Shown here piece after piece: positions 1-56,103 of a stretch of DNA of 64,000 bases. The DNA is from an uncultured Acidobacteriota bacterium. GTDB lineage: Bacteria > Acidobacteriota > UBA6911 > RPQK01 > JAPXNP01. The translations under genes and the position numbers were made by a program. How positions within the stretch are numbered: the first letter of the stretch is position 1; every line of letters starts with the position of its first letter. Location: assembly GCA_963777605.1 (NCBI GenBank), contig CAVZRV010000008.1:449761-513760 (forward strand), written 5' to 3'. The notes under the pieces are model-generated. The model ran no database searches and was not told the origin of the DNA. It saw nothing but the letters and a program-made list of their open reading frames with translations.

Positions 1-671
1 ACAACATCCGAGACGTGGCCGAAGCAGCGTGACTGGGAGCCGTCGCCGAACACGGTCAGCGGGTCACCCTTCAGGGCCTGAGACACGAAGTTGGGCAGAA
101 CCATCCCATAGCGCCCGGTCTGGCGCGGCCCCACGGTATTGAACAGCCGAATGACCACCACCGGGAGGCCTTTCTCCCGGCAGTATGCCAGGGCCAGGAA
201 CTCGTCGATGGCCTTGCTGCAGGCATAGCTCCAGCGCCCTTTGTGGGTCGGCCCCAGGACCAGGTCGTCATCTTCGGAAAATGGCACCTTGTCCGACTTG
301 CCGTAGACCTCGGAGGTCGAGAAGACGAATACCTGCTTCTTCTTCTTGGCCGCCAGCTGCAGGATGATCTCGGTTCCCCGAATATTCGTTTCGATGGTCC
401 GGACCGGGCTTTCCACGATCAGCCTTACTCCGACTGCCGCCGCCGCGTGAAGGACCACGTCGCACAGGTCGACCAGTTCGGCAGTCGCGGGGACATTCAT
501 GATCGAGTCGATGCTGTAATTGAAGCGAGGGTGTTCCTTCAGGTGCAGAATATTTTCGATGCGGCCGGTCGAAAGGTCATCAACGACATAAACGGTGTGG
601 TCTTGCGCGAGCAGGTGTTCAGCCAGATGCGATCCGATGAAACCCGCCCCCCCGGTGATCAGAATTCTCAT
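1..671 (-). CDS. NAD-dependent epimerase/dehydratase (extended SDR), runs off window start
   Basis: Manual translation from ATG at 671: MRILITGGAGFIGSHLAE (GxxGxxG), STSEVYG, YACSK (YxxxK), RLFNTVGPRQ; no stop before position 1. Confidence 0.9.
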   Translation of the reverse strand, partial: MRILITGGAGFIGSHLAEHLLAQDHTVYVVDDLSTGRIENILHLKEHPRFNYSIDSIMNVPATAELVDLCDVVLHAAAAVGVRLIVESPVRTIETNIRGTEIILQLAAKKKKQVFVFSTSEVYGKSDKVPFSEDDDLVLGPTHKGRWSYACSKAIDEFLALAYCREKGLPVVVIRLFNTVGPRQTGRYGMVLPNFVSQALKGDPLTVFGDGSQSRCFGHVSDV

Positions 672-19412: not shown

Positions 19413-19931
19413 ATGAACAGGGCTGAAAAGACAGAGCTTATCGAGAGCATGCACAAGAGCTTCTCCGAGAGCGGAAACGTTATTGTGCTCAGCTTTAACG
19501 GGGTCGACGTCCCGGATATCACCGACCTGCGACAAAAGATTCGTGACAGCGAAGGCAGCTATGAGGTGGTCAAGAACACCCTGGCTATCCGGGCTGCCGA
19601 GGGGACTCCGGTAGGGGGACTCAAGGAGCAGTTTACCGGGCCCACTGCGGTTGCCTGCACGTCGAAAGATCCGGTGTCGCTGGCGAAGATTCTGAAGGAT
19701 TTCGTAAAGACCCATCCCGGCATGTCGTTCAAGGCGGCAATCCTCGAGGGGCGGCCGATTGACCAGGCGCAGGTGGAGTCGCTGGCGGAGATGCCGTCCC
19801 GGGAAGAATTGCTTTCCAGGCTGCTGTTCATGTTGAACGCGCCGCTTACCCGGTTGGCGTCGGCTCTCCAGTCTCCGGTCAGGAACTTGGCCATCGTGCT
19901 TAATGAGTTGGCCAAGAAGAATCAGCAGTGA
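19413..19931 (+). CDS. rplJ: 50S ribosomal protein L10
   Basis: VVKNTLA, GPTAVA, LAEMPSREELL; synteny. Confidence 0.97.
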   Translation: MNRAEKTELIESMHKSFSESGNVIVLSFNGVDVPDITDLRQKIRDSEGSYEVVKNTLAIRAAEGTPVGGLKEQFTGPTAVACTSKDPVSLAKILKDFVKTHPGMSFKAAILEGRPIDQAQVESLAEMPSREELLSRLLFMLNAPLTRLASALQSPVRNLAIVLNELAKKNQQ

Positions 19932-19973
19932 AAAGCCTTTTTATCTCTATATCGTTGCAAGGAGTAATGAACA

Positions 19974-20360
19974 ATGGCGATCAGTCGTGAAGATGTCCTG
20001 GGCTGGATCGAGCAGGCCTCGATCCTTGAGATTAATGATTTAGTGAAGGACCTGGAAGAGAAGTTTGGAATCAGTGCAGCCGCGGCTGCACCGGTTGCCG
20101 TCATGGCCGGTGGCGCCGGAGCCGGCGCTGCAGCTGCTGAAGAAGAGCAAACCGAGTTCGACGTGGTTCTTACCTCCTTCGGCGACAAGAAGATCAACGT
20201 GATCAAAGTGGTCCGCGAAGTCACCAGCCTCGGCCTCAAGGAAGCCAAGGATCTGGTTGAGGGCGTTCCCAAGGCCGTTAAGGAAGCTATCACGAAGGAA
20301 GAGGCTGCGGAAATTAAGAAGAAGTTCGAGGACGCTGGGGCAACCGTCGAAATTAAATAG
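19974..20360 (+). CDS. rplL: 50S ribosomal protein L7/L12
   Basis: [31 protein letters not shown]. Confidence 0.99.
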
Positions 20361-20444
20361 GGATTGCCTGAGCTTGTACAATCACTCCAGGTGTGCTACG
20401 CTCACTCAAGCGTGGTTTTTGATATTTCTTCTTTGATTTAGGGA

Positions 20445-20476
20445 AGGAAAAGGGGCAAGTGTCCCTTTTCCTTTTT
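20445..20476 (+). terminator. Intrinsic terminator/attenuator after rplL
   Basis: AAGGAAAAGGGGC-AAGT-GTCCCTTTTCCTT followed by T run. Confidence 0.7.
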
Positions 20477-20710
20477 CTATTTCAGATGCGCGTGTTTCTC
20501 CAGGTCCGTTGATGAAGTCGGTCATCCGTGTCCCAGGCCTTCCGATGCGCGAATTCATGCCGGGTCCAGATCGGTCTCGCCCAATTCAGAACAGTTGCCG
20601 GTCTTGGGCTGCCGGTTTTGGAGGGCCGGTCTCCGGAGCGGCCTCGGCGTTTTTGGTTGAGGAATTCCTGTCGCCTTGTCCGAGCGTGTCCAAGTGTGAC
20701 GTGTCTTCAG

Positions 20711-20743
20711 GTGGCGAATAATGACCATTCCAGCTATCGGCGC
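20711..20743 (+). other. Probable 5' fragment of rpoB cut off at the segment junction
   Basis: GTG GCG AAT AAT GAC CAT TCC AGC TAT CGG CGC (MANNDHSSYRR) where rpoB is expected after rplL; no rpoB body follows. Confidence 0.4.
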
Positions 20744-21667
20744 CTAAGCGGCGTTTTTTCGTGGCGTATGCCCCTGGTGGCGCAGTGGCCGCTCAGTTGG
20801 GTGCTGGGCGTAGTATTCAGCCGCTAGAATCGCGTTTATAAGCCCCGTTTTACGCATACCAAGCGTGCGCGCCATGCTCATGTCCGTTTCGCCGCTGCCA
20901 ACACCCAAAAATTGCAGCGAACTGGGGTTAATGTGCGAGCTCATTGCGTTCGCACCGAGGCCGTTTAGGGTGGTAGCATGTTCACTCATGCCGGCCGTTT
21001 CATCAATAGTGGATGTATCAAGATAGTTAATTTGCGGTGGAATGCCCAGCGAACGGCACACTAACTCTTCCGAGCGGCCACCAAGGCTCATTTCGCCGTC
21101 TAATATCATCAGCATAGCTTGCACATTGTTGGGTTCGAGCCGGCCGCCCTTTTCCTGTGCGCGTTCAATCAGTAGCTTGCGGTATTCACTGGCGAGCTGC
21201 TTGTAGTGCCCCCAGCGCACGTCGTGATCAAGCGACGAATCGGTAAAGCCAGGCAGGGCAAGGGTAGGGGTAATCTTCTCACTAATCACCGCCGCATCAT
21301 CTTTTTCAACGCCCATCATCACGTGGAACCAAAACAATAGGTAATCGCTCTGCGACCAACCCTTCATTTTGCCCACTTCAGACGGCAAAATAATATCGGC
21401 TTCGGTAAACATTGGATGTTGGTACAGCAAAGCACGCTTAGCGATGTCGCCGTAGCTGCTATTTTTACCAATCACTTCGCCAATCCCAAGCTGCTTGTCA
21501 CGGGCATAGCCACCACTAGTGATTGCCATACTCAGGTAAATCGTGGGGTCTAAGCCTTCATCGACTAAATAGTCATCGTACAATTCGTAGGCTTCTTGGG
21601 GTTCTACACGGCGCTCGGCGGCGTAGGCTTCCATGGTTTCAAAAACGGGGCGATAGGGGCTGGGCAT
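20744..21667 (-). CDS. Hypothetical protein with nucleoside-2-deoxyribosyltransferase/DUF4406-like motifs
   Basis: SD AAAGGAG before ATG 21667; IYLSMAITSGG and DGEMSLGGRSEELVCRSLGIP. Confidence 0.55.
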   Translation of the reverse strand: MPSPYRPVFETMEAYAAERRVEPQEAYELYDDYLVDEGLDPTIYLSMAITSGGYARDKQLGIGEVIGKNSSYGDIAKRALLYQHPMFTEADIILPSEVGKMKGWSQSDYLLFWFHVMMGVEKDDAAVISEKITPTLALPGFTDSSLDHDVRWGHYKQLASEYRKLLIERAQEKGGRLEPNNVQAMLMILDGEMSLGGRSEELVCRSLGIPPQINYLDTSTIDETAGMSEHATTLNGLGANAMSSHINPSSLQFLGVGSGETDMSMARTLGMRKTGLINAILAAEYYAQHPTERPLRHQGHTPRKNAA

Positions 21668-26402: not shown

Positions 26403-27980
26403 TTACTTGCTCAGCGTTTCGGTACTCGTCTGGGTACCGTCCTGCGTCACAACCGTCTGCTTCACCTTGACACTGTTGCTGCCGACGGAAAGAATCTGCA
26501 CCTTGACGAGAAGCTTCTCGCTCTGGAGCACCTTCGTTCCATCGATATCCGAGTTCACATGGAAGCTCGCGGTGATGATGTCACCGACCGCAGCATTCTT
26601 TGTGATGTCGAAGTATTCCGTCTGGCCGTTGGCGAGATTCATCGCCTTCGACAGCTTTCTGCCAGCAGCGTTGTCCACGTAGACATGGCCCACGTAGTAC
26701 CGCTTGGCGTACTGCGGGTGCGCCGGCGTGGTGAACGAAACACCCGCCGAACACGACTCACAGCCTGCTCCAACCTGGATAAGCGCCTTGGCCCACGCAG
26801 GGCACACGACCGTGTAGCTACCTGACAGCGTGACCCAGCTCGTCGCACAGGCCCCGCCCACAGTGTTCGTGTAGCAGTACTTGTCGATCAGCACGTCACC
26901 ATCGTTCATGTAGAACGTCTTGGACACGCTGGCGCCGGGGGCGGCACTGATGTAGCCGACCACCGCACCGGTGAACTTGTTGACAATGGCGTGCTTGATG
27001 GGCTTCGCGTTCTCGCGGTGCACCACACTCACCTTGACAGGGATGTTGGTCCCGTCACAGTCGGTAGTACACGTCGTCGCGAACGATACCTTGTGCGCAA
27101 AGAGCTGGAACGTGTTGTAGCCATAATCACGGTTGTAGTAAGTCGACCCGATCAGGCGCTGCCGACTGCTCGACGACGGGAAGGTGATGCGCGTCTTGAA
27201 GGACGATGGCGCATACACGTAGGCGTTTGCGCGTGCCTCACCCGTACCTGTTCGCTTGAACTTGAACGAGGTGTAGCCGAAGCCAGTCTTGCCCTTGTTG
27301 CCGGAAGTGCCGTTCACCGAAATGATCTGCAACCCACGATTGGTGATCGTGAGCGGCATACCCTTCGGTGCCCACAGGCCGTTGTGCTTGTTCGTGATCT
27401 TGACCTTGCCGGTCGCAACGCCACCAACCTCAACCGAGGGCAGGGTAACCGTGACCTTCAGGCCACCGTACCCACGCTTGGCGCGGTTGATGATGTTGTT
27501 GATGCCACTGACGTCGTACTTCGTGAGGTAGCCACGGTTGACCATGTCGTAGTAGTAGCTCCGGCCACCAGACGACAGCAGTCGCCAGATGGCAAAGCTC
27601 GTCCGGTAAGACGTCTTGTTACTGAAATCCTTGTTACGGAAATAGTCATTGGCGATGTACGTCGCCAAATCCTTGTAGTAGTTGGAAGCGGAACCGGGCA
27701 GGTTCGTGGCCACACCAACGATGTCGGTGTTAGCAACTCCCTTGTTCGGCTCACTACAGAAGCCCTTGAACTTGCCGGGAATGACCTTGAGGCCGACGTG
27801 ACCGCCGACACTCCGACCCTTACCAGCAGGGAACGACTTGCCGTAGCTGTTTACGGCGCTCACGTACGTAGCTGCCTCTGCGGGCGCAGCCGTAGCAACG
27901 GCAGCACCCGTCAGCATGATCAGCGGGATAGGAGCGCCCAGAAGACGCCTGACGGCACTACTGCGAGGCGATGCACTCAT
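26403..27980 (-). CDS. Secreted thioester-domain (TED/TQXA)-like adhesin candidate
   Basis: Signal peptide (RR...APAEA), GFCSEP, TSFAIW, RQRLI motifs, Cys-paired beta-rich C-terminus; GC-richer codons than neighbours. Confidence 0.6.
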   Translation of the reverse strand: MSASPRSSAVRRLLGAPIPLIMLTGAAVATAAPAEAATYVSAVNSYGKSFPAGKGRSVGGHVGLKVIPGKFKGFCSEPNKGVANTDIVGVATNLPGSASNYYKDLATYIANDYFRNKDFSNKTSYRTSFAIWRLLSSGGRSYYYDMVNRGYLTKYDVSGINNIINRAKRGYGGLKVTVTLPSVEVGGVATGKVKITNKHNGLWAPKGMPLTITNRGLQIISVNGTSGNKGKTGFGYTSFKFKRTGTGEARANAYVYAPSSFKTRITFPSSSSRQRLIGSTYYNRDYGYNTFQLFAHKVSFATTCTTDCDGTNIPVKVSVVHRENAKPIKHAIVNKFTGAVVGYISAAPGASVSKTFYMNDGDVLIDKYCYTNTVGGACATSWVTLSGSYTVVCPAWAKALIQVGAGCESCSAGVSFTTPAHPQYAKRYYVGHVYVDNAAGRKLSKAMNLANGQTEYFDITKNAAVGDIITASFHVNSDIDGTKVLQSEKLLVKVQILSVGSNSVKVKQTVVTQDGTQTSTETLSK

Positions 27981-31023: not shown

Positions 31024-31848
31024 ATGACCTCGACCGAACTCAACCAAGACGACTTCTACACCGCGTTCCGGAGGTGGAACGCCAAGACAAGCACGCCAAT
31101 TTTGGCAGGGAACATGGCCTACGTACTGTGGCGGATTGTCGAGCGCCTGCGCTCGGCACGGCTCGGTACTGACGTTGACTACCTGCCGGGCACGCGACCG
31201 CTCACGAGGCGCCGTCGAGCCCAGAACGCACTCGGCGTTGGACTGTTCAGTGTTAGTGCCGCCATGGATACAAGCGAGCTGTACTACAGGGCAACGCGCC
31301 CCGGCGACACGTACGGCCCGGCGAACAGCCAGGACAGAGAGCTCATCGGCTTGATTGCTACGGCCGCCACTGGCATCGCCCTCGCAATGCGTGAGCTGCG
31401 AACCGGCAAGGCATTCATCCGCGGCTATCCACTGTCGAAGGATGGCCGAGCCGACAGCGCCATCACGATTGCCAAGCTGAGCGCTGTGGCTCTCATGGCT
31501 GCACACGAACTGTACCGCCGCCGTGAGCAGTGGCTGCCGCAGCTGCAGGATCACCTGTACACCGCCAAGGTGCTCGCACCTGTGGTGTGGAGTCAGTTGA
31601 AGGCGAAGGTGACTCGGCGCGAGCCCGAGGAGTTGAGCATGTCCGAGGAAGACCTCGATCGACTGCTCACCACCATGGCCGGGATCGAGGGAAGTCTCAT
31701 CGACACCGACCCGGACAACCCGGACTCGTGGCCGGAGGAGCTTGACTTCGAGCGGCTCGTGCTTCTTGCGGGCTTGACACCCGAAGAGGTGGCCGTGCTT
31801 GAAGGCCGAGACTTCGTGCCCGACCAAGGCTCACCCGAGCGCTCCTAA
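31024..31848 (+). CDS. Hypothetical protein (cassette class, GC-rich)
   Basis: TTGGAA-17-TATAAT (30945-30973), TAAGGAGGAG SD, bulged hairpin 31861-31892 plus T run. Confidence 0.75.
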   Translation: MTSTELNQDDFYTAFRRWNAKTSTPILAGNMAYVLWRIVERLRSARLGTDVDYLPGTRPLTRRRRAQNALGVGLFSVSAAMDTSELYYRATRPGDTYGPANSQDRELIGLIATAATGIALAMRELRTGKAFIRGYPLSKDGRADSAITIAKLSAVALMAAHELYRRREQWLPQLQDHLYTAKVLAPVVWSQLKAKVTRREPEELSMSEEDLDRLLTTMAGIEGSLIDTDPDNPDSWPEELDFERLVLLAGLTPEEVAVLEGRDFVPDQGSPERS

Positions 31849-42946: not shown

Positions 42947-43856
42947 TCGGCCGGGCATACCCCGTCACGCCAATCTCTGCCATATGTACACGGTGACCAG
43001 CAATTTCACCACTTAATGTCACAAAGCGCATGTCGTCGTTGTTCGGATCAAGAATAACATGGGCACTCCGCGTAATCACTTCAACCAGTACGCCGCGCAC
43101 CGCCGCAACCGCAAGTCGCGCTTTCATTACCACAATCCGTGGATCATCAACTTCAATTCGACGGTAGGGCGCTTCATTTAATACCTCTACCTCCATGGCA
43201 GGGTGGTCAACCGACAGTAAGTCATACACTAAATTAGTATGTGCCTGAGTGATTTCTTCATGGCTAAATGGTCGCGTCGCCTTCATCACTTCAATACCGC
43301 CAACTTCAGGGCGTAGTGCCAGCAGCTTAAACGCCGAAGCAACATTACCTATCCCGGCACGAAGGCGCATTAACCGCTCTGCCTGACTTTTTGTAACGGG
43401 CGTATCATCACCAGTCAATTCCCGCAAAGCAGCGTCGTTACGCAGGCCTTTTAGCTCGTGCTGGGCAACGATTTCGCGTGCCACTGCATGCCACGTTCCT
43501 TCACTAATCAATGGTAGTGGCGAATGATTCTCTGCGTCAGCCTTGCCTTCGTATCGTGCCAGTTGGAACTGCCGCCAGGCTTCAACTTCTTCAGCCGTCT
43601 GCGGCAAGGGGAGCTTTTCGGTTTGCCAATTTTCCATATAGTCACGCGCTAAATCATCATAGCGGTAGCCGTTAACATACAGCATTAACGGATCGAGCGG
43701 TGTCGGGGAATAGGGGTTGTAGTAATACGGTGGATGTTCAAGATGGAGCGGTGCGCGCATGACACCAGCAATAGTGTCCGGATGAGTCTCGGTGAAAAAG
43801 CGTGGAGTCTGCTCGGCCCGGGGGCGGACGAACGTCTCATGCATTGTCTCACTCAT
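42903..43856 (-). CDS. Hypothetical protein
   Basis: 317 aa ORF; TTGACA-17-CAAAAT promoter 10 nt upstream. Confidence 0.7.
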   Translation of the reverse strand: MSETMHETFVRPRAEQTPRFFTETHPDTIAGVMRAPLHLEHPPYYYNPYSPTPLDPLMLYVNGYRYDDLARDYMENWQTEKLPLPQTAEEVEAWRQFQLARYEGKADAENHSPLPLISEGTWHAVAREIVAQHELKGLRNDAALRELTGDDTPVTKSQAERLMRLRAGIGNVASAFKLLALRPEVGGIEVMKATRPFSHEEITQAHTNLVYDLLSVDHPAMEVEVLNEAPYRRIEVDDPRIVVMKARLAVAAVRGVLVEVITRSAHVILDPNNDDMRFVTLSGEIAGHRVHMAEIGVTGYARPINSRAPHGDRINTV

Positions 43857-43952
43857 ATAACAGGCTATTTTGCACCCTAAACGTCATTTTGTCAATATTC
43901 CTATATCACCCTTGTCATTATTTGTAATTTCGATTATAATAATCATCAGACA

Positions 43953-44058
43953 TTACCAGAGACAGTAGCAGCAGGGGAAACCCGCTTAATCCGCTACCGA
44001 GGAGTGAAAATTACTTTCGTTCTAAAAGAAGTCTTTGCTGATGCAAGGGCTGTTTTTA
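43953..44058 (+). promoter_or_regulatory. Ribosomal protein L10 leader with downstream hairpin/T run
   Basis: CCAGAGACAGTAGC...TTAAT..GCTACCGAGG matches L10-leader core; promoter TTGTCA-17-TATAAT (43912-43940). Confidence 0.75.
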
Positions 44059-44125
44059 TAACACTGGCATGTCGCTACCTTTACAATGTGGTCGAACTAT
44101 TAAACCCTAACGGAGAATGTAATTT

Positions 44126-44650
44126 ATGGCAATTACTCGCGATAAAAAACACGCGTTAGTAAGTGAAATGAGTGAACTTTTAGCAGATGCTAAGATGACC
44201 GTATACGCACAGTACAACGGCCTTAGTGTGGCTGATTTACAAACACTTCGCCGCAATGCTCGTGAAGCTGGCGTTACCATTAAAGTGGTTAAAAACCGCT
44301 TGGTACGCGTCGCGTTTGCCGAGCAGGCAAAGTATAAAGACGTTGATACCGCCGACCTAGTTGGCCAGCTCCTCTACGCCGTCAGCACTGACGACGAAGT
44401 GGCGCCAGCCCAAGTGTTCGACAAATTCGCTAAAGACAACCCAGCGCTCCAAGTGGTGGGAGCTGTCAGCGGCGAGGCTGCAAAGCTATCAACCGACGAA
44501 GTGAAGGCGCTCGCTGGCTTGCCAAGCAAGAACCAGCTTATCGCCGAAGTGGTGGCTCAACTACTTTCACCAGTACACGATGTTACCAATGCGCTTTCAG
44601 GCAACCTCCACGGCTTGCTTGATGGTGTAGAAGCAAAGGCAAACGCCTAA
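44126..44650 (+). CDS. rplJ: 50S ribosomal protein L10
   Basis: YNGLSVADLQTLR, VVKNRL, LAGLPSK. Confidence 0.96.
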   Translation: MAITRDKKHALVSEMSELLADAKMTVYAQYNGLSVADLQTLRRNAREAGVTIKVVKNRLVRVAFAEQAKYKDVDTADLVGQLLYAVSTDDEVAPAQVFDKFAKDNPALQVVGAVSGEAAKLSTDEVKALAGLPSKNQLIAEVVAQLLSPVHDVTNALSGNLHGLLDGVEAKANA

Positions 44651-44710
44651 CATTTCACTAAGCTTACGCGTCAATAAGACGTAACGATATAGAATCAAAG
44701 GAGATTAACT

Positions 44711-45095
44711 ATGGCTGATGTAAAGAAACTCGCCGAAGAACTGACAAAACTGACAGTTCTCGAAGTAAACGAACTAAAGAATGTCCTCAAAGACGAATAC
44801 GGCATCGAACCTGCTGCTGCAGCTGTTGCTGTTGCAGGCCCTGCTGCTGGCGGTGACGCTGGTGCAGACTGCTGCCGACGAAAAGACCGAATTCACCGTC
44901 AACCTTAAAGACGCTGGTGCGCAAAAAGTTGCTGTGATCAAGGCTGTGAAAGAAATCACCGGCCTTGGCCTTGGTGAAGCAAAGGCGCTTGTAGACAACG
45001 CGCCAAGTGCTATCCTTGAAAAGGCTGGCAAAGACGACGCTGAAAACGCCAAGAAGCTTCTTGAAGAAGCTGGCGCAAGCGTAGAACTTGCCTAA
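44711..45095 (+). CDS. rplL: 50S ribosomal protein L7/L12; one frameshift near 44870 (likely sequencing error)
   Basis: [19 protein letters not shown] in one frame; [25 protein letters not shown] in the next. Confidence 0.93.
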
Positions 45096-45128
45096 GTTCA
45101 CTTGTTAACACCCGACCACTTGTAAACG

Positions 45129-45159
45129 AACTGCCCCTCTAGCTTGAGGGGCAGTTTTT
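45129..45159 (+). terminator. Intrinsic terminator after rplL
   Basis: AACTGCCCCTC-TAGCTT-GAGGGGCAGTT plus T run. Confidence 0.8.
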
Positions 45160-45162
45160 GTA

Positions 45163-45191
45163 TTGACTATTTATGCTGATTATGCTATAAT
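45163..45191 (+). promoter_or_regulatory. sigma70 promoter of ORF 45228
   Basis: TTGACT-17-TATAAT with extended -10 TG. Confidence 0.8.
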
Positions 45192-45227
45192 GATAATGAT
45201 AAGCCATCCATCTACGAAGGGAACCAC

Positions 45228-45902
45228 ATGGCTCGTACCTTTGCCATCGACTACTACGAGTTCGACGACGACACTTGGAGCGACAGCGTCCAGGGCGTTC
45301 AGGTCAAGGCGCGCAGCGCCTCCGACCTGGCCCTCATCGCGAGCGCCACGCCGCCCGTCGTCCACATGCCCAAGTGGGAGCTCTACCGCGAGCGCCAGCC
45401 CATGACGCGTGCCCGGCGTAACCGCCAGTACACGCGCATGGACCGTTGGCACAAGCGCGAGCACGCCGCCGCCATGGCCGCCCAGAAGGCGCGCCGTGAC
45501 GACGAGGCCACTTGGGGTGTCGAGAGCGACCCCTACGCCCACTTGCACGACGCGGAGTGGGACCACTGCGACGAGCTGGACTGCTGGAGCCCCTGCGGCT
45601 GCTACGGACCGTGCTTCCACGAAGAGGCTGGCACCGTGCACCCCACGGAGCAGCAGCGCGAGCTGTTCGCAGCCGTCGCACCCATCACCGCTCTGCCGGT
45701 GCAGATCCTGCCGACGAAGCGCAGCGAGAAGTCGACGCTGATGAAGCGTCCGTCGCCCTCGCCGGTTCGCCGCAAGAGCGCACCGCAGCCGCAGTTGCCG
45801 CCGCACCTGCGCGTCCCCGAGAACGAGGAGCGCTGGCGCGACGGGCACCGTGGTGGTCGCGGCACCAAGGGTCGTCACCGCATGGTGCGGCTCGTCAGCT
45901 AG
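45228..45902 (+). CDS. Very GC-rich hypothetical protein with Cys cluster and basic C-terminus ending RLVS
   Basis: GAAGGGAACCAC-ATG RBS, strong G/C third-position bias, CDELDCWSPCGCYGPC. Confidence 0.75.
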   Translation: MARTFAIDYYEFDDDTWSDSVQGVQVKARSASDLALIASATPPVVHMPKWELYRERQPMTRARRNRQYTRMDRWHKREHAAAMAAQKARRDDEATWGVESDPYAHLHDAEWDHCDELDCWSPCGCYGPCFHEEAGTVHPTEQQRELFAAVAPITALPVQILPTKRSEKSTLMKRPSPSPVRRKSAPQPQLPPHLRVPENEERWRDGHRGGRGTKGRHRMVRLVS

Positions 45903-45914
45903 CGCTGGCATCCT

Positions 45915-45970
45915 GAGGCCTGGTACCCTCGATGAACCCCTAGTGGGAACATCGGGGGTCACCAGGCCTC
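45915..45970 (+). other. Conserved C-bulged hairpin, copy 1
   Basis: GAGGCCTGGT-ACCCTCGATG...CATCGGGGGT-C-ACCAGGCCTC; homologous to 46871-46927. Confidence 0.75.
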
Positions 45971-45984
45971 TTCGCATAGAAAAA

Positions 45985-46029
45985 ACCCGCAGTGGCGGTA
46001 GTCGATTCTACGACTACCGCTCTGCGGGT
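45985..46029 (-). terminator. Long bulged terminator of ORF 46046-46558
   Basis: ACCCGCAG..GCGGTAGTCG-loop-CGACTACCGC.CTGCGGGT with A run on + strand. Confidence 0.7.
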
Positions 46030-46045
46030 GTTGCGCTTTAGCGCA

Positions 46046-46558
46046 CTATGAAGGTGGCGTGAGCGGTTCGAACTGTAGCTCACCGCCTACACGACGATAG
46101 CGACCATAGATCCTGCCTGGCTGGCCAACGATCTGACGCCTGAACGCCCGCGTGACATCAAACGCGACCCACTCTCCCTCAAGCTCCAGCTTAGCTGTTC
46201 GCGGGAACATCGCGTCATCTGCACCAATCATGTTAGCGTATTCAGCGGCAGTGGTTTGTAGCCGTGGGACGCCGTGCCGCACAGGGAAGTAGTACCCCGT
46301 GATATCAAACCACCCCAGTTTCCATAGCTCCTCCTGGCGGTGTTCACGCCACAAGCACAACAGCAGCACTGCAACGAGACCGAGAATACCAGCCGACAGA
46401 ATGACACCAGGCACCAACGCGCGGCGTGATGCAAAAATCATCACAACACCGATCACCGTGATTGCGCCTGCGGCGAGACCCAGAATTGTTCCAAGATCTT
46501 CCAGGCGCTTATAATGGCGCACAAGGCCAGGATCCTCATATACTTCCGTAGACCGCAT
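46046..46558 (-). CDS. 2-TM hypothetical membrane protein (cassette class)
   Basis: AAAGGAGGAG SD before ATG 46558; TTGCTA-17-TAAAAT promoter. Confidence 0.75.
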   Translation of the reverse strand: MRSTEVYEDPGLVRHYKRLEDLGTILGLAAGAITVIGVVMIFASRRALVPGVILSAGILGLVAVLLLCLWREHRQEELWKLGWFDITGYYFPVRHGVPRLQTTAAEYANMIGADDAMFPRTAKLELEGEWVAFDVTRAFRRQIVGQPGRIYGRYRRVGGELQFEPLTPPS

Positions 46559-46638
46559 GGCTCCTCCTTTTAGTAGGGTCGTGGGCACAGAATAGGCATA
46601 TTTTATACTTTTTTTCATATTTTAGCAAGGTATAGTTA

Positions 46639-46667
46639 TTGACATTTTATACTGCTTGTGCTATAAT
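46639..46667 (+). promoter_or_regulatory. Consensus sigma70 promoter of small RLVS ORF
   Basis: TTGACA-17-TATAAT with extended -10 TG. Confidence 0.82.
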
Positions 46668-46714
46668 AGTAAACGTAAGTCGATTCATACCCGTCGTCCC
46701 CGAAAGGACACCAC

Positions 46715-46865
46715 ATGTCGACCAGCACCACCCAGCCCCAGCCCAGTGCACCGGCAGCGCCGCATCACCAACAGCAGTGCGCTGCCGAAGCACCTGCGCA
46801 CCGAGGAGCCGCGCCGTGAGCGCCGCTCCAGCCCCGGCCATTCCGGCCCGCGCCTGGTCAGCTGA
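46715..46865 (+). CDS. ~50-aa basic peptide homologous to the C-terminus of ORF 45228; needs one frameshift near 46730
   Basis: GAAAGGACACCAC-ATG RBS; shifted frame gives PSPSPV...LPKHLR...RLVS-stop. Confidence 0.6.
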
Positions 46866-46870
46866 GACCT

Positions 46871-46927
46871 GAGGTCTGGCGCCCCTGATGATACCCACCC
46901 ATGGGACATCGGGGGCCGCCAGGCCTC
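46871..46927 (+). other. Conserved C-bulged hairpin, copy 2
   Basis: GAGGTCTGGC-GCCCCTGATG...CATCGGGGGC-C-GCCAGGCCTC; compensatory changes relative to copy 1. Confidence 0.75.
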
Positions 46928-46984
46928 TTCGCTTTTTCAAAAAAGTACTTGCGTAAGCACTATATGTGGTGTAGTATCAGAGGC

Positions 46985-47056
46985 ATGAGCCGTATGAATA
47001 TCATTATTAGCATCATTATTCGCCCCCGCGAAGCGGTGCTAGTTGCTCATACGTAA
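46985..47056 (+). CDS. Ile-rich attenuator leader peptide MSRMNIIISIIIRPREAVLVAHT
   Basis: Six Ile codons at 47000-47020; TTGCGT-17-TAGTAT promoter 7 nt upstream; terminator follows. Confidence 0.8.
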   Translation: MSRMNIIISIIIRPREAVLVAHT

Positions 47057-47080
47057 AAATAACCCTACGAACCAAAAGAG

Positions 47081-47107
47081 CTCCCGGCACTGCAGCCGGG
47101 AGTTTTT
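47081..47107 (+). terminator. Attenuator terminator upstream of threonine dehydratase-like gene
   Basis: CTCCCGGC-ACTGCA-GCCGGGAG-TTTTT; alternative pairing of 47033-47048 with 47078-47093. Confidence 0.82.
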
Positions 47108-47139
47108 CATTTTCGTAACAAGAGGATAAGGAGAATACC

Positions 47140-48208
47140 ATGTCAGATCTATACAAACCAGGGCACTTCGACCCAAAACCAGACACCGTCATGCCAGGTG
47201 AGACTGCGCTTAGCGATTGTCGATGCGTTTCGCGGGGAAGCCGACGACAGGGCGCGCATGGAAGATCTGGAGTGCGAGTTCCCATTTTTTGCCCAGCGAT
47301 ACGGCCTCCGCGGCGTTGCACTGATGGATTTGGCCGACAACCAAGCCGGTGCATTTAAATGGCGCGGTGCAGTGACGGGGTTGGTGCACCATATGGAAGA
47401 TGGTGCTGACCATTTTGTTGCACCAAGTGCCGGCAATCATGCACGCGGCGCAATCTTAGCCGCGCGCTGGTTCAACCAACACCTGACGGTTGCCGTTCCT
47501 AGTTCTGCGCCGCCCAGCAAGCGTGAAATGCTGAACGAGCTATGGGGCTCGCATATGCTTGATGTGCGCACCGTGGGCGCAACCTTTAACGACTCACTGG
47601 CCTGGGCGCTGAGTTCACCGTACGCGATGCTCCACCCATTTGATGATGAAGCCGTGATGGCCGGGCAGGGCACTGCGCTTGATGACGTGCTGGCTGGTCG
47701 CCCAGAAACACAGCATGTGGTACTACCAAGTGGTGGCGCAGGCCTCGGTGGTGGTGTCGTAAGGCGCCGTGACGAATTAGGGCGCCAGGACGTGGCTATC
47801 CATCTCGTGCAAGCATCTGGGAGTAACAGTTTAAGTAATAGCTTACAGCGCGGTGAGCTGACATCCGCCGACGCACCGAACCACTTATACGGTGGCGCGC
47901 ATGTCGAGCGCGTTGGGGTACACCCGCTCACGCAGGTTGCCCGTGGCGAAAATGTGTTTGTTCATACCGTGCCAGAAGCCGATATGGATGAACTGCGCGA
48001 CCTGTATAGTCATGGTCGCGAAGTTTTGTTGCGTGAAGACACTCCGAACTTTGAACCGACATCGCTGCTCGCCGTCGCCGCGTTAAAACGGCTACAACTC
48101 ACGGGTGATGTTACCGTGCTTGGCACGGGTAAAAATGACAGTATTTACCCCCAAACAGCCGCCCGCGGTCGGCGCAACATGGTGTGGTATGGCCCGCAAG
48201 CTGCCTAG
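47140..48208 (+). CDS. Threonine/serine dehydratase-like PLP enzyme without regulatory domain; frameshift near 47205-47215
   Basis: AAGGAG SD at ATG 47140; GAFKWRGA, PSAGNHARG, HPFDD..MAGQGT, PSGGAGL in the 47198 frame. Confidence 0.82.
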
Positions 48209-48342
48209 TATTGCATAAAATACAACGCTTTTGATTATGCCTCTGTTTATCTTGTGGATAAGAATTTCCTTGACATCGCCGCACCCGAGTAGTATATAAT
48301 GAGGTCAGTATCACCCAAAAACAGACAAAGGAATGCGAGAAT

Positions 48343-48861
48343 ATGTCTGAATTACCAGAAAAACAGGTAAAGCGTTTAAAATCGTTGATCCAAGAAGCAG
48401 AAACGAACTTAGCAGCAGCCAAAGAATTGTTAATGAGCATCATCGGAGACGATGGCACTGTTGTACTCGGGCAATAGTCAGGCAGCGAAGAAGTCAGCGG
48501 TAAAGTTGTCGAAGGTGTTTTTGATGGCCAGGTTATGATTGGCCCAGATGGCAAAAGCTACCCTGTACCGGCCAACTACGCCAGTAAATCAAAACTTGTT
48601 GAAGGGGACATCCTTAAACTTACCATTGCCGATGACGGTGGCTTTATTTATAAACAAATTGGCCCAATTGCGCGCAAGCAAATTATTGGTACGCTCGTAC
48701 AGCATGACGGCGCCTACTATGTAGAAGCCAACGGTCGAGAATACCGCATCTTGCTTGCCAGCGTCACCTACTTCCGTATTAATATTGGCGACCAAGTCAC
48801 CATTATTGTTCCAGAAGACAACCCAGATGCTACCTGGGCAGCTGTTGAAGCCGCGCTCTAG
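48343..48861 (+). CDS. Conserved CPR-type hypothetical protein interrupted by in-frame TAG at 48475
   Basis: ATG 48343 in frame with 48535; EGVFDGQVMIGPDGKSYPVPANYASKSKLVEGD. Confidence 0.7.
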
Positions 48862-55818: not shown

Positions 55819-56103
55819 TCAGCTTGCGCGGACGATTACCAACCGATTGGGCTTGTGAAGGCGGTCTTGCACGTTCTCGTGCGCGTACTGCACGACCCAC
55901 GTACGGTCCTTGCCGAACGCTGTGCCGGGAAGGCCACAGTCTGTGGCATTCGCCTCGACGATGGCCGCGAAGAACGCATCGTGCTTGGTGGGATCGCGGG
56001 GAAGATCCTCGATGGCGATCTGGTAGTACGCCCACCAGATGACCGACGGACGCTCATCCCCGAGCACCGGGTGCTCATCCCACATGTACCGTTCGATTCT
56101 CAT
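55819..56103 (-). CDS. GC-rich hypothetical protein (cassette class)
   Basis: AGGAG SD, TTGCAA-17-TATAAT (56155-56183), long hairpin 55738-55780. Confidence 0.7.
   Translation of the reverse strand: MRIERYMWDEHPVLGDERPSVIWWAYYQIAIEDLPRDPTKHDAFFAAIVEANATDCGLPGTAFGKDRTWVVQYAHENVQDRLHKPNRLVIVRAS

Follow-up and report, generated by a model that had tools for sequence, protein, structure and literature searches.

A duplicated orphan-gene cassette behind rplJ-rplL of a Saccharimonas-like fragment, with a bulged hairpin conserved after each stop codon

Behind the ribosomal stalk genes of a Saccharimonas-like genome fragment, two units are found at a spacing of 1.4 kb, and each consists of a consensus promoter, a ribosome-binding site (RBS), a GC-rich open reading frame (ORF) that ends in RLVS-stop and a bulged hairpin. 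The correspondence of promoter, RBS, ORF end and hairpin identifies the two units as true duplicates, and the structure of the hairpin is constrained at the level of plus-strand RNA. We lean towards reading the locus as a duplicated orphan-gene cassette, with a hairpin that has been selected as a stem-loop of the 3' end, either a terminator or a stabiliser. Coordinates of all features are presented in Table 1.

The window (the whole 64-kb stretch of DNA analysed) is the tail of a composite contig, and from about position 20,400 onwards it consists of a Saccharimonas-like fragment (51% GC) that is joined behind an rplL belonging to a 59% GC genome. The dnaX relatives that bear names are Candidatus Saccharimonas, and the CPR setting guessed in an earlier note on this DNA was therefore right. 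The context of the locus is thus corrected to a Saccharimonas-like (CPR) fragment that a public assembly has fused to an unrelated genome; this fragment carries single-base indel errors. Its own rplL is assembled as two ORFs (44711-44908 and 44781-45095); the extra base responsible is missing from three contigs of the public run X1 and is probably an assembly indel. Without this base the gene has 127 codons, 113 of which are identical to the orthologue at L021, a metagenome contig locus discussed below. The 190-aa ORF that separates the two units has no match in Pfam, NCBIfam or PHROGs, and its matches in the ESM Atlas are unnamed clusters only.

Table 1. Features of the duplicated locus and its surroundings, in window positions.
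Feature	Position	Strand	Details
L10 leader upstream of rplJ	43938-44067		Rfam RF00557, 52.2 bits vs gathering score 44
rplJ (L10), Saccharimonas-like segment	44126..44650	+	PF00466 match; 70% identical to L021 rplJ
rplL (L7/L12)	44711..45095	+	PF00542 match; a single extra base (44868) splits it over two frames
rplL terminator	45128..45157	+	canonical, 12-bp stem and T run
Promoter 1	45163..45191	+	TTGACT-17-TATAAT, 11/12 consensus, TG before -10
ORF-A	45228..45902	+	224 aa, 69% GC, GC3 0.89, orphan family
Hairpin 1	45915..45970	+	56 nt, begins 12 nt past stop, no U tract; 100.4 bits
Second strong hairpin	45985..46029	.	A6 ahead of it on + strand; -43 kcal/mol, z -8.4
190-aa ORF separating copies 1 and 2	46046..46618	-	hydrophobic middle, no family
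Promoter 2	46639..46667	+	TTGACA-17-TATAAT, 12/12 consensus, TG before -10
Copy 2, cut-down	46715..46865	+	ATG 46715, RBS GAAAGGA, frame change ~46745
Hairpin 2	46871..46927	+	57 nt, begins 5 nt past stop; 93.2 bits

The first unit carries ORF-A, a small and rapidly evolving gene whose family and conserved synteny are demonstrated and whose reality is supported by the GC3 of 0.89 in its frame. Its translation ends in ...PSPSPVRRK...LPPHLRV...RLVS-stop, in agreement with the end given earlier, and further contains a Cys cluster and an LPPHLRVPE motif. The Arg-rich motif RQPMTRARRNRQ lies within the sole confidently predicted helix (residues 61-96, pLDDT 76-81 as means over 10-residue blocks) of an AlphaFold2 model that was built from a 5-sequence alignment and has a mean pLDDT of 56.6 and a pTM of 0.25, values too low to support a search by fold. 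Four relatives of ORF-A were found among 1,835,955,588 representatives, at E values from 3e-11 to 5e-5. Stretches invariant in the family are RQPMTRARRNR, ATWG and LPxHL, the Arg-rich 11-residue RQPMTRARRNR in four of the five members, which are otherwise 31-38% identical. The RLVS end is absent from all four relatives.

One of these relatives, P0004, bears the NCBI name Candidatus Saccharimonas sp. In the contig APMI01004632.1 its gene follows rplJ-rplL and a TTGACA-17-TATAAT promoter, and the placement directly after rplL that the earlier note had pointed out is therefore conserved in this relative. L021 carries the same gene and covers only its first 255 nt. The GC3 of ORF-A contrasts with values of 0.48-0.58 in its neighbours, and the L021 orthologue likewise has a GC3 of 0.79 as compared to 0.42-0.49 for the L021 rplL and rplJ. 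A recent transfer from Actinobacteria, which would explain the 70% GC, is unsupported, as no actinobacterial homologue is present among the 1.84 billion representatives; such a transfer also faces the GC3-rich L021 orthologue.

Searches beyond these relatives returned little. By sequence, ORF-A matched no family in Pfam, NCBIfam, PHROGs or the PDB, and the only profile match across the five family members was DUF6195, at E 0.11 in one of them. There was no match by tblastn to phages and plasmids and no usable match in the ESM Atlas. ORF-A was found in none of 40 genomes related to the 59% GC genome, a result that is uninformative because these genomes are kin of that genome and not of the Saccharimonas-like fragment. 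With a 3-member alignment, none of the pattern matches in genome contigs (28), viral contigs (18) or metagenome contigs (122) was confirmed, and a degenerate RQPMTRARRNR pattern met one locus in metagenome contigs, L021, and none in viral contigs. A search with the family alignment for short relatives of 30-79 aa gave 33 candidates, none at E<=1.

The correspondence between the two units begins at their promoters. Only three consensus promoters of such quality occur on both strands of the 64 kb, and promoters 1 and 2 are two of them; they are 77% identical over 43 nt, and conservation extends three ways to the L021 promoter. The RBS of ORF-A is GAAGGGA, 7 nt upstream of the ATG, and GAAAGGA precedes the ATG of copy 2, so that the near-perfect promoters and similar RBSs described earlier are present at both units. 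The copies also correspond in RBS-ATG, in the GTCAGCT stop context and in the hairpin, and homology is continuous from the coding end through the hairpin.

At the coding level the second unit is less well preserved. The frame 46656-46865 ends in ...PSPSPVHRQ...LPKHLRT...RLVS-stop, and LPKHLR and the RLVS end both lie within the last 39 codons of copy 2. A small ORF starting at 46715 with this end had been proposed; the RLVS-ending frame is indeed there, but as assembled ATG 46715 opens another frame of 34 codons (stop at 46819), and past promoter 2 there is no start codon in the RLVS frame. An indel had been suspected near 46730, and base 46745 is missing from one related-strain contig of run X1. 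Omitting it yields a 49-codon ORF that starts at ATG 46715 and ends at the RLVS stop (46865); the frame change then comes after the PSPSP stretch, which would be translated differently. The essential rplL of this assembly also contains an extra base, which makes indel errors likely. Comparison of the two C-termini by pairwise BLASTP gave E 0.01 with 12 of 24 residues identical, and when copy 2 was left out of a profile of the C-terminal module, that profile gave it only E 1.8 among 1018 fragments. The claimed paralogy of the two units is thus borne out by their DNA architecture and weak at the peptide level.

Both hairpins share one anatomy, in which 10 bp, a single bulged C on the 3' side, a further 10 bp and an internal loop are closed by a 3-4 bp CCC/GGG cap. 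The fold energy is -43.8 kcal/mol (z -6.9) for hairpin 1 and -45.8 kcal/mol (z -6.7) for hairpin 2, and none of 200 shuffled sequences folded as well. The copies have a mean column identity of 82%, and all 23 pairs are standard in both despite nine changed paired bases. Three of the changes are double, two of them flanking the bulge and the third, C-G to A-U, in the cap, while three are one-sided, all from C-G to U-G, and paired on the plus strand only. When the nine changed bases were placed at random, all pairs were kept in 2 of 200,000 trials. Divergence amounts to 5 of 10 columns in the unpaired interior as compared to 9 of 46 in paired columns, and a shuffle control on the hairpin pair, which is weak with two sequences only, reached the observed values in 52 of 500 shuffles. 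The strand is shown to be the plus strand: the one-sided changes are all C-G to U-G, and the minus strand folds more weakly (-37.6 as compared to -45.8 kcal/mol in copy 2) and scores lower (27-35 bits with the hairpin model as compared to 93-100 bits on the plus strand). Templated repair inside a DNA palindrome could mimic compensatory change in such hairpins. The description in the earlier note, a C-bulged hairpin of about 56 nt within about 12 nt of each stop, with two compensatory pairs flanking the bulge, G-U-tolerated changes and the common flanks CCT and TTCGC, is accurate on all these points, with the double change in the cap as an addition.

The same observations bear on whether copy 2 is a decaying pseudogene remnant, with a functionless hairpin that resembles the first through recent gene conversion or palindrome-templated repair. 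The out-of-frame ATG, a large internal deletion and the failure of the independent family profile to find copy 2 would fit such decay. However, a related-strain contig lacks the frame-breaking base, indel errors are likely given the extra base in rplL, copy 2 retains a full-consensus promoter and an RBS, and the GC3 of its RLVS frame is 0.83; moreover, recent conversion predicts identical arms, yet nine paired positions differ. We therefore regard decay as unlikely. The history that we propose starts from a lineage-specific orphan gene of Saccharimonas-type bacteria, directly behind rplJ-rplL and with its own consensus sigma-70 promoter. The whole cassette of promoter, RBS, ORF and 3' hairpin was duplicated in situ, 1.4 kb downstream, and the second copy would then have shed ~530 nt internally, leaving a short N-terminus and a basic C-terminal module, together ~49 codons. 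In this reading, selection has kept the long bulged hairpin behind each stop as a structure of the plus-strand transcript.

From their position and surroundings, we infer that the most likely job of the hairpins is to form or protect the 3' end of the mRNA. Hairpin 2 is followed by TTCGCTTTTTC at 46928-46938, and a terminator scan flags copy 2 with the tail TCGCTTTTTC. Hairpin 1 is followed by TTCGCATAG, in which there is no U tract (the criterion for a terminator being a U tract of ~7-9 nt directly after the stem), just as the earlier note had reported. With no U tract in copy 1, it is doubtful that transcription terminates at hairpin 1 itself; mycobacterial RNA polymerase is reported to depend on a U tract for intrinsic termination (PMC3993855). 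The second strong hairpin, which starts 15 nt after hairpin 1, is the canonical terminator of the convergent minus-strand gene and may stop ORF-A transcripts as well. Hairpin 2 would thus be a terminator stem together with its U-rich tail, and hairpin 1 a 3' stabiliser ahead of a shared bidirectional terminator.

Like intrinsic terminators and 3' stabilising stem-loops, both hairpins are GC-rich stem-loops shortly after a stop on the transcribed strand, with a U-rich tail in copy 2 and a structure kept by compensatory change. They differ from the canonical terminators of the same segment (45128-45157, 47076-47107, after 31848 and before 26403), as the earlier note had anticipated: the latter have stems of 8-13 bp and U tracts, whereas the stems of hairpins 1 and 2 are about twice as long and are broken by the conserved bulged C and the internal loop, and copy 1 has a second terminator hairpin behind it instead of a U tract. 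The long hairpin does not mark GC-rich genes in general here, since the other GC3-rich ORFs of the segment are followed by short terminators of the ordinary kind. The conserved bulged C and the CCT/TTCGC flanks exceed the needs of a mere stabiliser, which counts against a 3'-end role.

RNase III needs about two turns of double-stranded RNA, ~20 bp, and each hairpin offers a near-perfect duplex of ~20 bp with one bulge, plus the cap. Together with the specificity of the structure to plus-strand RNA, this would suit a candidate site of RNase III-type processing or decay, through which the strongly promoted transcripts would have their level or 3' end set. A stabiliser or terminator accounts for the same facts, and we give such a site only a small chance.

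Hairpins with a bulge or an internal loop are bound by Arg-rich helices, for example those of lambda N and HIV Rev. ORF-A resembles the lambda N-boxB and HIV Rev-RRE pairs in having an invariant Arg-rich helix and a bulged hairpin in the same transcript, and it differs in that the hairpin lies in the 3' UTR, copy 2 is without the helix and there is no sequence homology. The hairpin could accordingly be the cognate RNA target of this helix, of the basic C-terminal tail or of both, in autoregulation or RNP assembly; the invariance of RQPMTRARRNR in its confidently predicted helix and the retention of bulged C, internal loop and flanks in both copies speak for it. The Arg-rich helix is however wholly absent from copy 2, the four relatives lack the RLVS end, and no hairpin copy was found elsewhere, which makes such a target improbable. 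Slightly less probable again is a self-contained RNP or autoregulatory module, in which the Arg-rich helix, or the tail shared with the 49-aa paralogue, recognises the bulged hairpin of its own mRNAs.

The searches for further hairpins cover several collections. The 6.73 Mb searched hold only the two copies, and no third was found in the window, the assembly, the GTDB species genomes (exact 3'-arm pattern) or IMG/VR. The 3'-arm pattern, with 19 fixed bases, matched seven stretches in 596 Gb of genome contigs, about as many as estimated by chance, and none of the seven folds like the hairpin; viral contigs gave no match. In Rfam 15, only the L10 leader passes across 43500-48500, and neither hairpin has any match up to E 1. 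A conserved peptide-plus-RNA module extending beyond this locus, as the earlier note had envisaged, is therefore not supported, given the lack of RLVS in the relatives, of a third hairpin and of short relatives. Of the plainer alternative named in that note, a duplicated terminator without other copies, one half was found, namely the lack of further hairpin copies.

These counts also bear on the idea that the hairpins are DNA-level recombination sites or transposon ends (attC-, IS200/IS605- or REP-like) and the ORFs their cassettes. As in an integron cassette, an imperfect palindrome with an extrahelical base closely trails a short ORF of composition alien to its neighbours, and a gene is bracketed by the two hairpins, which form direct repeats on one strand. 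The attC core consensus is RYYYAAC ... GTTRRRY. Neither hairpin region contains GTT or such R''/R' cores, the ends being CCTGAGG ... CCTCTTCGC, and no integrase or Y1 transposase occurs among 25 ORFs scanned against Pfam. Unlike attC cassettes, each unit has its own consensus promoter, and homology runs unbroken from coding end to hairpin, as plain duplication predicts; the G-U pairs favour RNA. REP elements and IS200/IS605 ends are further set apart by the restriction to two copies and by an intervening ORF without family matches. The DNA-element explanation is thus largely refuted, and we consider it very improbable.

As the evidence stands, the locus is an ordinary duplicated gene with a 3' stem-loop. 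It defines a tiny uncharacterised family, marked by a conserved site after rplJ-rplL, by an invariant Arg-rich motif and by persistently GC-rich coding. On a small scale, it is also a clean example of compensatory change preserving a 3' UTR hairpin between paralogues. If the Arg-rich helix or shared tail did recognise the hairpin, the module would be driven by one of the strongest promoters of the region, beside the genes of the ribosomal stalk, and could also explain why a GC3 of 0.8-0.9 is kept in a ~50% GC genome. A hairpin that binds protein would offer rare access to post-transcriptional control in episymbionts of a lineage with almost no known regulatory RNA.

The assembly has a size of 6.73 Mb and about 59% GC, while the last 44 kb of the contig holding the window (from about position 20,400) has about 51% GC. 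Two rplJ-rplL sets are present on this contig, one host-type at 19413–20360 after tuf-nusG-rplK-rplA, and the other at 44126–45095 (Table). The low-GC part encodes its own nusG, rplA, thyA, thymidine kinase (tdk), dnaX and P-type ATPase along with many ORFs without family, and at the DNA level it shows no notable resemblance to other parts of the assembly. Its dnaX is 55–69% identical to the 120 matches listed (57–63% when aligned full length), five of which carry organism names: three Candidatus Saccharimonas sp., one Patescibacteria group and one Microbacteriaceae. The sole rpoB of the assembly is truncated at the start of another contig, C50. The locus belongs to a Saccharimonas-like fragment joined 3' of the rplL of an unrelated genome, and the join near 20,360–20,800 is likely a misjoin or binning artefact. 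Since the fragment is foreign to the rest of the assembly, the 0 of 40 from the relatives search is uninformative on ORF-A, the orphan gene behind the second rplL.

Table. Features of the locus behind the second rplJ-rplL set
Feature	Position	Strand	Remarks
rplJ	44126–44650	+	second rplJ set of the contig, upstream of rplL
rplL	44711–45095	+	3' of rplJ, followed by terminator
rplL terminator, canonical	45128–45157	+	between rplL and promoter 1
Promoter 1	45163–45191	+	TTGACT-17-TATAAT, TG extension; RBS, then ORF-A
ORF-A	45228–45902	+	224 codons, behind promoter 1 and RBS
Hairpin 1	45915–45970	+	56 nt, 12 nt past ORF-A stop
Strong second hairpin	45985–46029		15 nt past hairpin 1; preceded by A run
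Convergent ORF	46046–46618	-	190 codons; canonical terminator is hairpin 45985–46029
Promoter 2	46639–46667	+	TTGACA-17-TATAAT; back to back with upstream region of 190-codon ORF
Copy 2	ATG 46715 to stop 46865	+	RBS, ATG, then GC-rich stretch ending RLVS
Hairpin 2	46871–46927	+	57 nt, 5 nt past RLVS stop; then TTCGCTTTTTC

Hairpin 1 (-43.8 kcal/mol, z about -6.9) and hairpin 2 (-45.8 kcal/mol, z about -6.7) were matched in stability by none of 200 shuffles. All 23 aligned pairs are standard in both copies. The compensatory pairs described in the earlier note are borne out, as two double-sided changes flank the bulged C and a third lies in the cap; three pairs change from C-G to U-G. When the nine changed paired bases were placed at random, pairing was fully kept in 2 of 200,000 trials, and a shuffle control on the alignment, of low power with two sequences, gave 52/500. 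The U-G pairs exist on the + strand only, the minus strand of copy 2 folds more weakly (-37.6 vs -45.8 kcal/mol) and the covariance model gives the minus strand 27–35 bits vs 93–100 bits for the + strand; therefore, the structural constraint acts on the + strand transcript. The features noted at this locus are real, and selection maintains the structure of the hairpin. A DNA-level recombination element is largely refuted by these G-U pairs, by the absence of attC cores, by the separate promoter of each unit and by the presence of only two copies in the window and the whole assembly.

The second unit, copy 2, had been described as an ORF running from ATG 46715 to an RLVS end. This does not hold as assembled, where the ATG opens a 34-codon frame different from the RLVS frame, which is without any start downstream of promoter 2. 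A suspected indel near 46730 found a counterpart in the public run X1, whose contigs come from a related strain sequenced to a depth of about 3x: one contig lacks a base at 46745, and its omission yields a 49-codon ORF from ATG 46715 to the RLVS end at 46865. In rplL, frameshifted by one extra base at 44868, this base is likewise absent from X1, and omitting it restores 127 codons, of which 113 are the same in the intact orthologue of L021 (APMI01004632.1). Because X1 lacks both bases and both frames are thereby restored, the breaks are likely single-base assembly errors. Other one-base differences from the related-strain contigs lie at 45980, 48466 and 48480; the contigs lose one base at 48466 and gain one after 48480, and ORFs 48343–48477 and 48535–48861 may be one gene.

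The consensus promoters noticed earlier are confirmed on both units, where they make up two of the only three matches to TTGACN-16..18-TATAAT that the 64 kb contain on either strand, with 77% identity to each other over 43 nt. Paralogy of the units is upheld by this DNA architecture but only weakly by the peptides: the C-termini align pairwise at E 0.01 (12/24 identical), and a C-terminal profile that excludes copy 2 scores this copy at only E 1.8 among 1018 fragments. The paralogy rests on promoter, RBS, stop context GTCAGCT, hairpin and shared flanks. A rival reading takes hairpin and copy 2 as a remnant without function.

ORF-A has no match in Pfam, NCBIfam, PHROG or PDB sequences. An exhaustive HMMER pass over 1,835,955,588 representatives returned four relatives (E 3e-11 to 5e-5), three with the N-terminal module and one, P0005, with the C-terminal half only. 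Invariant stretches comprise RQPMTRARRNR (in four of the five members), ATWG and LPxHL, and P0005 shares a Cys cluster and HPTE..RE.F; the RLVS end, proposed as a conserved feature, is absent as such from all four relatives. The AlphaFold2 model from five sequences is poor (mean pLDDT 56.6), its sole confidently predicted long helix being the Arg-rich region, residues 61–96. The hairpin could alternatively be a putative binding site for this Arg-rich helix or the basic tail of the family.

Searching with a degenerate form of the Arg-rich stretch located the gene of relative P0004, from an organism named Candidatus Saccharimonas sp. at NCBI, in L021. The order there is orf317-like gene (30% identical), rplJ (70%), rplL, terminator, TTGACA-17-TATAAT, RBS and the P0004 gene (32% to ORF-A), inside which the sequence ends. 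Placement directly after rplL is thus shared, and because of this matching layout the ORF-A gene is an old resident of the post-rplL site and not a recent insertion. Full-text literature searches yielded nothing on the family or a post-rplL cassette in Saccharibacteria, which is weak evidence of absence.

GC3 of ORF-A is 0.89 vs 0.48–0.58 in its neighbours, and in L021 the P0004 gene reaches 0.79 over its first 85 codons vs 0.49 for rplJ and 0.42 for rplL. Recent transfer was rejected as the cause, since so divergent an orthologue is also GC3-rich and no high-GC donor homologue is detectable among the same representatives; GC-richness is therefore a trait kept by the family. Speculative causes would be selection on mRNA structure or biased gene conversion between the paralogues. 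Three other ORFs of the 51% GC segment have GC3 of 0.77–0.78, namely 26403–27980 (-), 31024–31848 (+) and 55819–56103 (-). One has an N-terminus that is Ala-rich and resembles a signal peptide, a Pfam scan of the first two gave no match, and all three could be acquired genes. The last has a strong stem 3' of the gene without a clear U tract.

Ordinary terminators in this segment, with 8–13 bp stems and U tracts, sit after rplL, after a leader (47076–47107) and after two other GC3-rich ORFs (26403–27980 and 31024–31848), so the long bulged hairpin is special to the ORF-A/copy 2 gene pair. The leader ORF itself (region 46985–47107; 23 codons, six Ile, MSRMNIIISIII...) and its canonical terminator lie immediately upstream of a PLP enzyme gene (47198–48208). 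The best NCBIfam matches of the enzyme, none of which reaches cut-off, are in the main threonine/serine ammonia-lyases and dehydratases with IlvA on top; the arrangement resembles classical attenuation by an ilv-type leader peptide, here in a Saccharibacterium.

Hairpin 2 is followed by a U-rich tail and a terminator scan marks it as terminator-like, and hairpin 1 indeed has no U tract and is followed by a bidirectional terminator. Mycobacterial RNA polymerase is reported to require a U tract (PMC3993855), which weighs against termination at hairpin 1 itself. A putative RNase III site is another rival. We lean slightly towards a selected 3'-end stem-loop, which would terminate the transcript of copy 2 and/or shield both transcripts from 3' exonucleases. 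A widespread peptide-RNA module, as proposed earlier, finds no further hairpin copy in the assembly, in 596 Gb of species genomes (seven stretches with the exact 3'-arm pattern, about the chance number by estimate, none folding like the hairpin) or in IMG/VR (no match to that pattern), nor any relatives of 30–79 aa. A duplicated orphan-gene cassette with a 3' stem-loop fits the evidence better.
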